Shown one piece after another: positions 982 to 8,561 of a stretch of DNA of 9,238 nt. Numbering within the stretch: position 1 is the first letter of the stretch; each line of letters begins with the position of its first letter. Both the position numbers and the translations under genes were made by a program. The stretch comes from a virus. Taxonomy: Duplodnaviria > Heunggongvirae > Uroviricota > Caudoviricetes. Below the pieces are notes generated by a model, which saw nothing but the letters and a program-made list of their open reading frames with translations, searched no databases and was not told the DNA's origin. The stretch lies in the IMG/VR virus record IMGVR_UViG_2703718854_000002, one strand, 5' to 3'.

Positions 982-1027
982 CTATTCAATCACTTACAGT
1001 GTTTCGATTCAGTGACCAACATCCCGT

Positions 1028-1061
1028 TGAGAAAAAATGAGAAAATCCACTGAGAAAAAAT
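1028..1061. repeat. Short direct repeats TGAGAAAA(AA)T, three copies starting at 1028, 1038 and 1051, between tRNA 3' end and integrase stop
   Basis: Read directly: tgagaaaaaat at 1028-1038, tgagaaaat at 1038-1046, tgagaaaaaat at 1051-1061. Location fits an attL-proximal arm region; function not established. Confidence 0.3.
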
Positions 1062-1096
1062 AACGCCAGATTTGCACCCGGCGCTGTATCTCAAAC

Positions 1097-1777
1097 TCAC
1101 ATTTTTCTGTTTAAAGTTGGGCTAATTTTTACTTTCCTGTCGTATACCAACACCTGTGATTCAGTTTTGTGACCACTGAATTTTTGCTTATCACGGCCAC
1201 TTCCTTCATAGTCAGAAATGCCTTTCGCCTTCAGATCATGGAACGTGCAGTCTAACGGTCTGCCAATTTTTTCAGCAGCCGCATTCCTAGCCTTTCTCCA
1301 GGCTTCATTGAAACCTTTATAGGAATATCGCTCTCCGTACATGGTTTTGATGACAGCGCCATCTTCCCCTGATTTCCTGCAAAGATTGACAGCGGAGTGC
1401 AAGCGGTCTGTCCACGCTTTAATCTGCTTAACTCCAGTTTTACCCTGTTGAATGAAAATTCCTTTATCCATTATCTGATTCCAGTCCATTTTCAGAACAT
1501 CGGAAACCCTCGCTGCACAGAGATAAGCAATTTCCATTGCGGCTTTTACCGGATCAGTAGCACAGTCATAAATTGCTAAATACTCTTCATCCGTAATGTA
1601 TCGGTCGCGCTGAGGTTTAGGGTATTTATCGACGCCTACGCATGGGTTGCCTGGCACAAATCCACGTTGATATCCCCACCTGTAAACGCGTGACATCGAA
1701 CTATGCTCATGGTTAGCCTGTACGGATGCAATGAAAGAGTTCGGCATCACTGAACCAAAAGATAAGGCGATGTTCAT
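1097..1777 (-). pseudogene. int: Lambda-family tyrosine integrase, C-terminal catalytic domain only (N-terminally truncated remnant)
   Basis: Product aligns by eye to the lambda Int catalytic domain: RDRYITDEEYLAIYDCA, CAARVSD (Arg I), GKTGVK (Lys), FHDLKAK (His present, Arg II position is Lys), GHKTES (His II), LVYDRK (Tyr). An in-frame stop (tca at 1781-1783) lies two codons upstream of the ORF-track Met. The first ~27 residues (1697-1777) are antisense to the endolysin 5' end, so integrase-derived sequence begins near 1696. No room for arm-binding or core-binding domains. Confidence 0.7.
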
Positions 1778-2261
1778 TGCTCAGGTAGGACATGAATCGG
1801 CGGGATTCTCTGCGCTGGTGGAGAACTTCAACTACACGCCTGCCGCATTACTGACGACGTTTGGACGCCGGGTAACGAACTACCAGGCCTCAATGCTTGG
1901 ACGTGCCAACGGTAAGCCAGCAAGTCAGGAAGCTATCGCGAACCTGGTATACAGCAACCGCCTGGGTAATAAAGCTGCTGGTGATGGCTGGAAATACCGT
2001 GGGCGCGGATTAATTCAGATTACCGGTCTCACCAATTACCGTGATTGCGGCAATGGTCTGAAGCTTGACCTGGTTACTAACCCTGAACTGCTGGAGAAAG
2101 ACATCAATGCTGCGCGTTCTGCTGCATGGTTCTACGCCTCCAAAGGTTGCCTGAAGTACACCGATGACCTGGTGCGCATCACTCAGATTATCAATGGCGG
2201 TCAGAACGGCATTAACGACAGACGCGTGCGTTACGGCAAAGCGAAAGCGGTGATTGCATGA
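1731..2261 (+). CDS. Phage endolysin, glycoside hydrolase family 19 (chitinase-like lysozyme)
   Basis: FIAQVGHESAGFSALVENFNY carries two Glu spaced as in the GH19 catalytic pair, and YRGRGLIQITGLTNY follows. It closely resembles Salmonella phage SPN1S-type endolysin as I recall it. The frame is open only from 1686 (stop taa at 1683-1685), so ~25-30 N-terminal residues of the full-length family member appear lost. Stop overlaps the next start (ATGA at 2258-2261). Confidence 0.75.
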   Translation: MKEFGITEPKDKAMFIAQVGHESAGFSALVENFNYTPAALLTTFGRRVTNYQASMLGRANGKPASQEAIANLVYSNRLGNKAAGDGWKYRGRGLIQITGLTNYRDCGNGLKLDLVTNPELLEKDINAARSAAWFYASKGCLKYTDDLVRITQIINGGQNGINDRRVRYGKAKAVIA

Positions 2262-2530
2262 GCATTGTAGAAATCATCATTGGTGTCATTGGTGCTATCT
2301 GTGTTGCCGCTGCTGGTGGGTTTGGTCTTGGCCATATTCGCGGAACCAGCAAAGCAGAAGCGAAAGCCGATCAACAACGCACTGAAGAAAACGCAGCGGC
2401 GAAGGTTGCAGTGGCAGAACGTCAGGCAGAAGTCACCAGAGAGGCCAGTAATGTACAGCAGAAAGTTAATCATATGCCTGGCGACGACGTTGATCGCGAG
2501 CTGCGCACAAACTGGACCCGTAAGGGTTGA
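2258..2530 (+). CDS. Rz-like i-spanin (N-terminal TM helix plus charged coiled-coil region)
   Basis: ATGA overlap with endolysin stop. Hydrophobic N-terminus IIIGVIGAICVAAAGGFGLG followed by Ala/Glu/Lys/Gln-rich segment. Position immediately after endolysin is typical for Rz. Confidence 0.5.
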   Translation: MSIVEIIIGVIGAICVAAAGGFGLGHIRGTSKAEAKADQQRTEENAAAKVAVAERQAEVTREASNVQQKVNHMPGDDVDRELRTNWTRKG

Positions 2531-5795: not shown

Positions 5796-5827
5796 TTAGA
5801 TCAGCCCACTAATGAGTTTGCAAAGGT

Positions 5828-5851
5828 GATGCCAACAAAAGTGTTGGCATC
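5828..5851. repeat. Perfect 24-bp palindrome GATGCCAACA-aaag-TGTTGGCATC in the gtr-type/acetyltransferase intergenic spacer
   Basis: Read directly from the sequence: 10-bp arms, 4-nt loop, 8 nt downstream of the glucosyltransferase stop and 33 nt upstream of the acetyltransferase start. Confidence 0.6.
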
Positions 5852-5858
5852 AAAATAA

Positions 5859-7277
5859 TTAGTTCACTATAACAATTGCTTGTCCATTTCGCTCTTTCAA
5901 TATCATGTTTTGAGCGTTGAATCTCACAGTTCCATCTGATTCTATTTTTTTACAACCAGAATCGCACGGGTAGATACTATACCCCAGTTTTAAATGGGAG
6001 ACTTTATCCATGAAAGGATTGCCAGTATAGAAGTATCTATTCATATTGTATATGAAAGGAAATGCTTTTCTGTATGGTTCTGATGCTGAACTGGGTTTGT
6101 TTATTTTTAGATAAATTTTCTGGTAATCTTTATTTTGCAGCGATAAGACTGCATTTGTACGCATTAAGACATTATCAATTCTGGAATAATTTATATTTTG
6201 AAGCATGAAGAAACAGCTTACAAAAATAAATGATATTACCATCGGCACAACTGATACCCAATCAAGCCTTTTAAAGGTGATATTAGTAAAAATAATCATT
6301 GTCGATGCCATGATTATCACTCCGCCCGAAACCATAGAACGACTGGTCACTGGTGGATTTTTTAGAATCAGTAGCATGCCAAAGGAAAGGAAGATAATAA
6401 ACAAGTAAAAAACAACACTCGTTAATTTTACAGGCAAGCTTAATCCTTTTTTTAATAAAATCACAGCAAAAGGAAGCGTAACATACAAAAGTAAAATTTT
6501 TCCTATAAACCCATGGAATAAATCATAAAAGATTTCCTTGAATTTAAGATAGGAGGTGAACATGTTTTTTAACGTATACATGTCAATGCCCAGCATTTCA
6601 GAGCGCATCTTTGTATACTCACTCATATCATCGGGGTTAAAAATCACCTTCTTGTATAGTGCGTATGCAACAAGCATTAGAACGCCAGCAATGACGCAAA
6701 ACTTAATAGCACTAAAAATAGTTGCTTTACCTGACATCATGCTGTGTATGGCTAGTATCAATATAATTGATAAGTATACTGCAATAGATGACTGATAAGA
6801 TGAAATTGCCAGTATTAGCAGAATGAATGCTGTAGCATAAAAGAGCTTTGAAGAAACTCCGAGATAACAGTAGTACGCTGCCATCGCAGCCATGCCTACA
6901 GATGCGGACATCAAAATTGCATCATACTGATAGGCAAGATTATTTATAAAAAATGGGGATAGTAAAAGTGATAAAGAAAATGATGCTTTCGCAAAACTCA
7001 ACTCGCTACCAAAAAATACACTGCTGATTTTGTGTGCAGGGTAAATGAGGAACAGCGCTGCAATCATCATAGTAAATGGAGATAATATTAGAATATGACC
7101 GTTGCCAATGAGATTAGACAGGACTGTTGAAAAATATCTACCATTATGATCCCATCCATATGGTATCTCTATACGCAAAAAATCATCTACGTATAAATGT
7201 CCACCGATAATGAAAGGGAGCACATATAAAAAACCAACAAACAGTAAAATTCCTAAATTTTTAGAATCGTTAGTCAT
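5859..7277 (-). CDS. Serotype-specific O-antigen glucosyltransferase (GtrC/Gtr-type family), polytopic membrane protein
   Basis: Large, AT-rich multi-TM ORF immediately downstream of gtrB in a gtrA-gtrB-gtr(type) arrangement. Start chosen at ATG 7277 (MTNDSKNLG-), which has AGGA 9 nt upstream; the ORF track's longer start is ATG 7295 (MSGKTAM-), which lacks an SD. Either way it overlaps the gtrB 3' end. Confidence 0.65.
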
Positions 7278-8202
7278 TGCTGTCTTTCCTGACATTTTTT
7301 AGAACATATTTTGGACGTTGTTTGGTTTCAATATAAATTCTGCCGATATATTCACCTAACACACCGATTCCAATCAACTGTATTCCGCCAAGGAAAAGGA
7401 TTGAAACAAGGAGCGAAGGGTAACCACGAACTGGGTTGCCAAAGGCAAGAGTGTTTACAATCATCCACGCGCCATATAAAAAAGATAGACCGGCAACAAA
7501 CAATCCAATGTATGTCCACATCCTCAGCGGGAATGTGGAGAAACTTGTTATACCTTCAAGTGCTAGGTTCCACAACTTCCAGCCGTTGAATTTAGAATCA
7601 CCTGCGACACGTTCAGCACGCACGTATTCTACAACATCAGTTTTTCCGCCAACCCACGAAAGAACCCCCTTCATAAATAGATTTCTTTCGGGTAGCTGTT
7701 TGATATTCTCTACGACCTCTCGTGACATCAGACGGAAGTCACCAACATTCTCTTCAATTTTTGGATTGCTGATTTTATTATGCAGCTTATAAAACCACTC
7801 AGCAGATTTCCGCTTTAAGCGGCTGTCAGTTGAACGGTCTGAGCGCTTAGCCAACACCATATCTGCACCAGCCTGCCATTTTTCGATCAGATTAGGAATG
7901 ACCTCTATTGGATCCTGAAGGTCGACATCAATCGGGATAACCGCTTCACCAGTGGCATGATCAAGGCCAGCGAAAAGAGCTGGTTCTTTACCGAAGTTTC
8001 TGGTGAAGGATAAAGGCATAACAAGCGGATCAGCAACGGCAAGTGCATTAATAATAGATTCGGTCGCATCTTTGCTGCCGTCATTGATGAATACTATCTC
8101 TACTTCATGATTTTGAAGTTCTTCAAATTCACGAACCGTTTTATAGAAGATCGGTATTGTAGCCTCTTCGTTAAATACCGGAACGACAAGAGAAATCTTC
8201 AT
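7270..8202 (-). CDS. gtrB: Bactoprenol glucosyltransferase GtrB (GT2 family)
   Basis: [14 protein letters not shown]-terminus, DVDLQDP (DxD) motif, two C-terminal TM segments. ATGA start/stop overlap with gtrA at 8199-8202. Confidence 0.9.
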
Positions 8203-8561
8203 TTCGCTTCCCTAAAGACAATGAATTTAGAATAGAAAAAACCACATACAAGGCTGATAGCAGAGAATGCAACTAATGTGATGATTGGCGGCAATCCGAC
8301 TCTATCCGCAGCCAAGCCGACAGCAGCACTGAGCGCACCCATAAAACCAACGTAGAGCACGTAACGAAAAGTTGAAGTGGACGCTTTAAAAGTGAAACGA
8401 GCATTAGCGTAGAAGCTGAAGCTAACAGCCACAACAAAACCAGCAAAGTTGGCCAAAGCCTGGCTCGTGGACAATCCATACACGCAAACACCAAAAACAA
8501 CCCAGTGAATGAGCGTGTTTAAAACGCCAATCGATGTGTACTTAGCAAAAAGTTTTAACAT
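8199..8561 (-). CDS. gtrA: GtrA flippase-like small membrane protein
   Basis: 120-aa product [25 protein letters not shown]... closely matches the enterobacterial/phage GtrA sequence as I remember it; four hydrophobic segments. Confidence 0.9.

Follow-up and report, generated by a model that had tools for sequence, protein, structure and literature searches.

Which kind of element lies downstream of the serU tRNA gene of Escherichia coli: the remainder of one prophage, a patchwork of unrelated insertions, or an element that is still able to move? This question was addressed on a 9,238-nucleotide stretch of DNA (IMG/VR virus record IMGVR_UViG_2703718854_000002, Caudoviricetes), the whole of which is called the window below, and in which an island of phage-like genes follows serU. 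Our results indicate with high confidence that the island is a cryptic and presumably non-inducible remnant of one lambdoid siphovirus, which was cut down in place. An earlier sequence-only reading had proposed a skeletal prophage at the tRNA-Ser gene, with the integrase end at attL followed by endolysin, Rz/Rz1, HNH endonuclease, tail-fibre C-terminus and O-antigen modification genes. All of these pieces were confirmed in this order by Pfam and PHROG profile searches (Table 1), and the steps of their reduction can be followed in sister E. coli assemblies.

The remnant between serU and yodB

Host core genome (mtfA, then serU) fills the left 980 bases of the window, and the whole window is 100% identical to a stretch of the 4.84-Mb E. 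coli contig L003 (GCA_054792755.1), identified by an exact-protein look-up. The window contains no second copy of the tRNA 3' end. A search to the right of it, which the sequence-only reading had suggested, revealed attR: window positions 917-996 match L003 positions 10691-10771 with 93.8% identity over 81 nt (BLAST), starting 129 bp past the window end. Because a boundary mismatch is found among the first four bases of this match, the repeat core was taken as 921-996, with a 77-nt attR core located about 133-209 bp past the window end. The repeat spans the tRNA from the anticodon stem through the 3' end plus 15 nt, and the locus has a single attL/attR pair. In L003, the host gene yodB lies 550 bp beyond the attR repeat, which excludes the continuation of an intact prophage to the right. 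K-12 BW25113 has the empty site, in which serU directly abuts the yodB flank, and so do other complete E. coli genomes that were sampled along a ranking with 3,047 genomes covering at least 80% of the query. Thus, the island, with a total length of 8.47 kb, starts at position 982 and ends about 209 bp outside the window, beyond the right limit at 8561 proposed earlier, after which two more phage genes follow. A flanking repeat with an empty site elsewhere, and an integrase fragment next to attL that reads towards the tRNA, are features of a cryptic prophage.

One base differs between serU at attL (921-981) and its partial copy at attR (L003 10695-10755), A944 versus C in the variable arm, and this difference is consistent with the phage supplying the 3' half of the tRNA on integration. 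At Rfam gathering thresholds the tRNA was the only match in the window, and a permissive scan of positions 2500-4100 returned nothing.

The element is defective. Profile searches of the window revealed no repressor, replication, Q, holin, terminase, portal, capsid or tail genes, and no xis/excisionase gene was found in the list of open reading frames (ORFs) or by the Pfam and PHROG profiles. With these essential modules lost, the remnant is not expected to form virions and can presumably no longer be induced. The proposal that every module had left a remnant was not borne out, as early-left, immunity, replication, Q, holin, terminase, head and tail-shaft remnants are all missing from the window. 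Nor is each module reduced to a fragment: no gene of the conversion cassette is shortened, Rz and Rz1 are complete, and the HNH gene is short by 11 codons.

The integrase lacks its N-terminal ~120 amino acids, including the arm- and core-binding domains, and is predicted to be non-functional. Its homology ends at position 1724; the ORF reaches 1777 because it is fused to endolysin-derived DNA. Residues 19-226 of this ORF share 100% amino acid identity with the C-terminal 208 residues of the 329-aa integrase of the CUWW10 island, which occupies the same site. The endolysin ORF starts at an internal methionine (Met28) and encodes 176 aa compared to 203 aa in the full-length protein, which is preserved in the sister assembly L025 and matches the solved endolysin structure 4OK7 (E=1.5e-81). 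The truncated protein retains a conserved HES...EN motif, which we take to carry the GH19 catalytic glutamates. No holin, Q gene or evident promoter for the endolysin is present in the window. Without holin and Q, and with a shortened endolysin, the lysis cassette is not functional and Rz/Rz1 alone are complete, so that the lysis enzyme, contrary to the earlier suggestion, was not spared.

The HNH gene preserves the first 85 of its 96 codons, followed by a foreign 13-aa tail encoded by out-of-frame tailspike DNA. It retains its catalytic motif and has no terminase partner in the window; the native 96-aa protein is followed by TerS and TerL in the sister assemblies L026, L037 and L045. The tailspike remnant corresponds to about codons 581-812 of 812 (~232 codons) and consists mostly of the S74 chaperone domain, an intramolecular chaperone that is normally cleaved off. 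L005, L006, L008, L025 and L045 have the full 812-aa tailspike, which includes a Tail_spike_N domain.

Junctions and decay states in sister assemblies

Both junctions were mapped at base resolution by comparison with sister E. coli assemblies, which are 99.96-100% identical in all shared DNA. Across junction 1, 2,265 bp kept in L025-type sisters are absent from the window. This deletion (D1) took the final 23 nt of the integrase remnant together with a fragment of an early-left ORF, a C-terminal fragment of DUF968, the Q gene, two holins and 71 nt from the start of the endolysin gene. On the left side of the second deletion (D2), the DNA of L026 runs on past junction 2 through the last 11 HNH codons, TerS, TerL, portal, S78 protease, capsid and connectors, and then a gp10-like gene; on the right side, the first ~580 codons of the 812-aa tailspike are found in L025. 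At each junction the missing DNA is contiguous and 100% identical at the same locus in sister assemblies. Of the two abrupt junctions predicted from sequence, the one between HNH and tailspike was placed correctly (positions 4038-4108), whereas the integrase/endolysin junction lies ~21-41 nt to the right of the predicted 1683-1700.

Together, the sister states give a composite parent prophage. Its left part has the order int, (early genes), DUF968, Q, holin, holin, GH19 endolysin, Rz/Rz1, CxxCxxCC and HNH; the middle part TerS, TerL, portal, S78 protease, HK97-type capsid, connectors, tape measure, TipJ and tailspike; and the right part oac, gtrCBA, a 79-aa gene, a UmuD-like gene and attR. This order is collinear with that of the intact lambdoid phage KPP5665-2. 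The sister copies include HK97-type TerL, portal, S78 protease and capsid genes, an 828-aa tape-measure ORF and the C-terminus of TipJ. These genes identify the parent as a lambdoid siphovirus whose head was of the HK97 type; its genome is put at roughly 40 kb. The lambdoid half of the P22/lambda-like assignment made earlier was correct, but the P22-like half was not: a short-tailed P22-like parent is ruled out by the HK97-type head genes and the tape measure and TipJ genes in the sister copies, and P22-like traits are limited to the N-terminal domain of the tailspike (Tail_spike_N) and the placement of the gtr genes.

Among intact phages, the Klebsiella phage KPP5665-2 (also KpF5 and ST16-OXA48phi5.3) is the closest relative of the reconstructed parent. 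Its head module from TerS to the connectors is ~84% identical to the sister copies at the nucleotide level, its prophage gene order is the same, and its HNH, Rz and Rz1 proteins, encoded in the same order, share 86%, 72% and 60% amino acid identity with those of the window. In contrast, KPP5665-2 differs in integrase, att site, endolysin type, tailspike and cargo, and has no gtr genes.

Alternatively, the island could be a patchwork of unrelated elements inserted independently next to serU. The best phage matches of its segments do differ (Enterobacter and Salmonella phages for gtrB/gtrA, the Escherichia phages Fostie and SaltyDalty for Rz, vB_EcoS-733R5 for the DNA downstream of the endolysin), and the GC content falls from 52% to 33% along the island. 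However, mosaic best matches are normal for lambdoid phages, there is one attL/attR pair, and the DNA missing at the junctions, when taken from the sisters, restores the order of an intact lambdoid phage. With the pieces collinear with one prophage, independent insertions are excluded as their source in practice, and we consider a patchwork highly improbable.

The descent of the window from one prophage by stepwise loss is directly seen in the sister states. Junction-specific 32-mers were scored in the 18 assemblies with the island at serU, revealing five structural states. The window type (D1 and D2) was found in ten independent assemblies, one of which is a metagenome assembly; an eleventh contig has D1 and ends before junction 2. 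The L026 type (two assemblies) combines D1 with a different second deletion, D4, which starts downstream of gp10, ends within oac (window position 5127) and leaves HNH, TerS, TerL, portal, protease, capsid and gp10 in place. The L025 type (four assemblies) has no D1 and carries D3, which extends from inside Rz1 (window position 2534) to the 3' end of TipJ; it retains Q, both holins and the complete forms of the endolysin (203 aa) and the tailspike (812 aa). The two remaining states are represented by one assembly each. In the L045 type (GCA_012072605.1), D5 joins HNH and the head genes to the full tailspike, whereas the L008 type (GCA_012533795.1), the most complete state found, has an internal tail deletion that fused the 828-aa tape-measure ORF to the C-terminus of TipJ, followed by the tailspike.

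Since D1 is common to two lineages with mutually exclusive second deletions, it preceded D2, in agreement with the stepwise deletional decay proposed earlier. The integrase remnant of the L025 type ends 23 nt past the left breakpoint of D1 and is already fused to early-gene debris; by parsimony, at least two deletions would therefore be older than D1. These older deletions would have taken the integrase N-terminus, xis and the early-left, immunity and replication regions. The host flanking DNA shows almost no single-nucleotide polymorphisms (SNPs) between the states, and thus the assemblies represent one clone in which deletions outpaced point mutation. These within-clone decay intermediates with base-resolved junctions are the feature of the locus that goes beyond the routine, and the series can be used to measure the speed and order of prophage module loss.

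Artefacts of short-read assembly across repeated lambdoid sequence might produce similar structural variants, as most sister assemblies are drafts and the several lambdoid prophages of an E. coli genome share the lysis/CxxCxxCC region. Against this, the junction overlaps of 4-5 nt are far below any assembler k-mer, the window state is present in the 4.84-Mb contig and in the ten independent assemblies, and the L026 state is present in an NCBI assembly and in an independent assembly derived from the Sequence Read Archive. An assembly origin of the variants thus has next to no probability.

In the proposed course of events, the phage would have entered the 3' half of serU once, in a single E. 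coli clone, and would then have been shortened in place by successive RecA-independent, microhomology-mediated deletions. Deletion 1, at TACG, fused the integrase fragment to the endolysin gene, and deletion 2, at GGTCA, the 3' end of HNH to tailspike codon ~580. The surviving units are gtrA-gtrB-gtrC, the Oac-type gene, the gene pair behind the LexA box and the CxxCxxCC gene, whereas the integrase, endolysin, HNH and tailspike pieces would be inert debris.

The right ends of D3 (L025) and D5 (L045) lie in the same hexamer, GGTACC, in the 3' region of TipJ, with the overlaps GGTA and TACC (L008 3381-3386; L025 10274-10278; L045, reverse complement, 7251-7254). Their left ends differ, with D3 starting inside Rz1 and D5 in the head-closure gene region. 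The shared endpoint could be a coincidence or a local deletion hot spot. Two insertion sequence (IS) elements were also found in two window-type assemblies (L004/L009): an ISL3-family element at 8644-8651 in GCA_019958005.1, with an 8-bp duplication inside the LexA box, and a DDE_Tnp_1 element at 6437-6447 in GCA_013074665.1, with an 11-bp duplication, which interrupts gtrC.

Table 1. Features of the window and of its two deletion junctions (window coordinates; L025 and L026 are sister assemblies)
Feature	Position	Strand	Assignment	Remarks
mtfA	1-798/837	minus	host gene	
serU	892-981	plus	tRNA-Ser(CGA); ARAGORN, Rfam tRNA at 57 bits	holds attL core 921-996
Integrase pseudogene	1097-1724	minus	PF00589 (Phage_integrase), positions 2-167/172	catalytic domain only; C-terminal ~209 codons
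Junction 1	1721-1724		TACG, 4-nt overlap	window 1-1724 = L025 5475-7198; 1721-2534 = L025 9464-10277; both 100%
GH19 endolysin	1725-2261 (ORF 1731-2261)	plus	PF00182, phrog_181	5'-truncated
Rz i-spanin	2258-2530	plus	phrog_1026, positions 4-84/85	full length, 90 aa
Rz1 o-spanin lipoprotein	2454-2681	plus	phrog_1275, positions 5-73/81	full length; LIASC lipobox in translation
CxxCxxCC-domain (YkgJ-like) accessory gene	3076-3609	minus	PF03692, phrog_9155	177 aa; opposite to late operon
HNH endonuclease, packaging-associated	3812-4067 native (ORF to 4108)	plus	PF01844, phrog_2323	last 11 codons lost
Junction 2	4063-4067		GGTCA, 5-nt overlap	window 1-4067 = L026 7744-11810; 4063-9238 = L025 12280-17455
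Tailspike C-terminal remnant	4068-4763 (ORF 4089-4763)	plus	PF13884 (S74 chaperone), phrog_7121	
oac-like O-antigen O-acetyltransferase gene (Acyl_transf_3)	4809-5795	minus	PF01757, positions 6-321/326	intact, 328 aa; 34-37% GC
gtrC, GtrII-family serotype-specific glucosyltransferase	5859-7295	minus	PF14264, positions 4-317/317	intact
gtrB, bactoprenol glucosyltransferase (GT2)	7270-8202	minus	PF00535	intact, 310 aa
gtrA, flippase component	8199-8561	minus	phrog_2224, positions 1-120/120	intact, 120 aa
LexA box	8638-8657		TACTGTATATGCATACAGTA	perfect consensus match; 20 nt upstream of 79-aa gene
79-aa phage gene	8677-8916	plus	phrog_3893	elsewhere annotated 'DNA polymerase V'
UmuD/HumD-like gene	8903-9238	plus	phrog_3469, positions 1-105/106	111 aa; last prophage gene

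O-antigen modification cargo and the right end

Nine phage genes in the window (Rz, Rz1, the CxxCxxCC gene, oac, gtrC, gtrB, gtrA and the 79-aa and UmuD-like genes) are intact and covered end to end by profiles. The genes gtrA, gtrB and gtrC form a contiguous operon of the GtrABC type, with head-to-tail overlaps at 8199-8202 and 7270-7295. The oac gene is located between the tailspike remnant and gtrC, and an Acyl_transf_3 gene in this position is a candidate O-acetyltransferase of the Oac type; its product is 26% identical to the Oac of phiV10. The gtrB and gtrA genes share 77% nucleotide identity with gtrB/gtrA of Enterobacter and Salmonella phages. The product of gtrC (478 aa, or 472 aa from an alternative start; 33-37% GC) is more distant, with 25-27% identity to phage GtrCs, and the relatives found comprise its own 38-member cluster and one 32%-identical Proteus protein. 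A megablast search of 5,426 complete E. coli genomes gave no match to gtrC, and no GtrC relative was found among the GTDB species-representative genomes, where E. coli has one representative. This rare GtrC variant probably confers an uncharacterised O-antigen glucosylation.

By analogy with characterised systems, the present-day role of the island would be O-antigen glucosylation and O-acetylation. If the cargo is expressed and the enzymes are active, GtrB would load glucose onto undecaprenyl phosphate, GtrA would flip undecaprenyl-phosphate-glucose to the periplasm, GtrC would attach the glucose to a specific O-unit sugar, and Oac would acetylate an O-unit sugar. The expected outcome is a change of serotype and blocked adsorption of O-antigen-dependent phages, presumably including the parent phage, whose tailspike gene adjoins the cargo. 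Experiments on GtrABS of CPS-53, a cryptic prophage of K-12, have shown that this system glucosylates O16 and blocks several phages (PMC11990801). In Salmonella, phage-derived gtr islands adjoining tRNA genes are stably kept, and SPI-16 and SPI-17 have the same accepted role (PMC3688519). Selection is a plausible reason for the survival of the cargo in the window.

Several points weigh against this account of the island. Exact-protein look-ups and the 5,426 complete E. coli genomes contained no intact copy of the prophage, so that the ancestor had to be pieced together from the sister states. The right-flank SNP comparison has too few variable sites to order the deletion lineages, and the passage of the window lineage through an L025-like left end is a matter of parsimony, not proof. 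GtrC and Oac share only 25-32% identity with characterised or named relatives, and promoter and terminator consensus scans gave nothing above shuffled expectation, so that no gtr promoter is claimed. The serotype-conversion cargo, which the sequence-only reading regarded as spared, is intact in the window, but the D4 lineage lost the 3' third of oac, and an IS element lies in gtrC in one assembly. The genes beside attR are also kept simply since larger deletions would enter yodB.

The cargo is also present at another locus. A block of 6.4 kb in L043 and L048 (Logan ERR4317646 and ERR4317691), which begins near nt 180 of the tailspike gene and includes oac, gtrCBA and the 79-aa gene, is 99.9% identical to the window-lineage copy. 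It resides in another small skeletal prophage, located between yciB/SRAP and yciA, with a 127-aa S24 peptidase and a different, full-length 393-aa integrase. The near identity of the two blocks indicates a recent exchange of the tailspike-plus-conversion cassette between phages. It might also be taken as a sign that the serU island is a live mobile element, such as a satellite or an integrative gtr island, which can excise and transfer. This is very unlikely, as the serU copy lacks the N-terminal part of its integrase as well as any excisionase, replication or packaging gene, and deletions at a single fixed locus account for its size variants.

It is conceivable, but in our view doubtful, that the serU remnants are more than passive debris, with a deletion hot spot or directed process acting at GGTACC and the tailspike-oac-gtr segment forming a selectable cassette. 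The presence of at least five deletion states in one clone, with two endpoints in GGTACC, hints at localised or directed deletion and not random slippage, and the 99.9% identical block at another locus may mean that receptor recognition and modification are exchanged and kept as one cassette after the death of the phage. As a still weaker extension, the LexA box at the right end might couple O-antigen modification to the SOS response.

This box lies in the 115-bp divergent intergenic region (8562-8676) common to gtrA and the 79-aa gene. No such match was expected from 200 shuffles, and its CTGT-N8-ACA core is kept in three other serU islands. The downstream 79-aa and UmuD-like genes are predicted to be controlled by the LexA box. 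The 79-aa gene has the same position in the serU islands of Z142-3, CUWW10 and PK5. The UmuD-like gene ends with its stop codon at the window end, followed by attR and yodB; in its product, the N-terminal 22 residues alone match the NCBIfam HumD model, below the cut-off, and no obvious GDSM serine motif was found. The LexA box and the two genes are retained together in three other serU islands of different cargo. Upstream of gtrA, the same 115-bp region contains one GATC (8629-8632). Dam/OxyR phase-variable gtr operons of Salmonella have a signature of four GATC sites within OxyR half-sites upstream of gtrA.

The island adds another dead prophage with intact O-antigen genes, at serU of a rarely sequenced E. 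coli clone. This kind of element is already known, and the general understanding of cryptic prophages is unchanged. With GtrC and Oac proteins that have no close characterised relatives, the clone probably has an undescribed pattern of O-antigen side-chain modification, which is relevant to serotyping and to phage host range.

Related islands and accessory genes

The known elements most similar in kind are CPS-53/KplE1 and SPI-16/SPI-17. CPS-53/KplE1 of E. coli K-12 (intS, gtrABS/yfdGHI) is a ~10-kb defective remnant of lambdoid/P22 type at a tRNA gene with a GtrABC-type operon. It differs from the window island in its location at argW rather than serU, its intact integrase, a different GtrC/GtrS and the absence of oac, and the window island additionally has lysis, HNH and tailspike debris and the putatively LexA-controlled pair with the UmuD-like gene. 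SPI-16 and SPI-17 of Salmonella are likewise derived from phages, with direct repeats, a tRNA gene and gtrABC operons with a family-specific GtrC, and the rest of the phage lost (PMC3688519). They belong to another genus and other loci, and their gtr operons are often Dam/OxyR phase-variable, a signature not seen in the window, with its single GATC in the 115 bp upstream of gtrA. In the serotype-converting phages P22, SfII/SfV/SfX and phiV10, gtrABC or oac also lies beside attP, directly after the tailspike or tail-fibre gene and on the opposite strand. In contrast to the window island, these phages are intact, those of the P22 and Sf6 types have P22-type heads and short tails, and their GtrC and Oac proteins are ~25% identical to those of the window.

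Relatives of the window island occupy the same serU-yodB site in the E. coli strains Z142-3, CUWW10 and PK5 and share its right end, with amino acid identities of 87-94% for gtrA/gtrB, 92-97% for the 79-aa gene and 87-100% for the UmuD-like gene. The integrase remnants of CUWW10 and PK5 are closely related or partly identical to that of the window. The three islands differ from it in their GtrC or acyltransferase cargo and in their state: Z142-3 still has genes for head and tail, CUWW10 carries many IS1 copies, and the PK5 region has been rearranged. Nucleotide identities of 84-86% between the serU islands point to separate acquisitions.

The CxxCxxCC gene, as well as the 79-aa and UmuD-like genes, had been omitted from the earlier gene list. 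Its PF03692 score of 22.5 bits is slightly below the 23-bit cut-off. An identical protein was found in 404 collection blocks, always between Rz1 and HNH/terminase in otherwise diverse lambdoid prophages. It is a widespread accessory gene, which occupies its usual place here. PADLOC assigned no defence system to the CxxCxxCC, 79-aa, UmuD-like or Oac proteins. It returned weak matches of the HNH protein to PtuB, which reflect generic HNH similarity, and the PtuB-like candidate was rejected. NCBIfam gave no above-cut-off name for any cargo or accessory gene.

The Rz protein is identical in the sister prophages, and the start of Rz1 overlaps the end of Rz. Two unannotated non-coding segments near these genes and HNH are shared with a range of lambdoid phages, and neither has an Rfam match. 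The 217 bp after Rz1 (2684-2900) are 81-93% identical to vB_EcoS-733R5, Stx2c phages, Hafnia phage yong1 and mEp213, and ~60 bp before HNH (3712-3771) are ~90% identical to HK639, mEp390, mEp043 and others.

In the PK5 genome (L049, NZ_CP074024.1 1886319-1894800), mtfA and serU are inverted relative to yeeJ. Its remnant contains an oac homologue (91% amino acid identity) split by IS5 and a 652-aa acyltransferase in place of the gtr genes, followed by the same 79-aa gene, UmuD-like gene and attR end.

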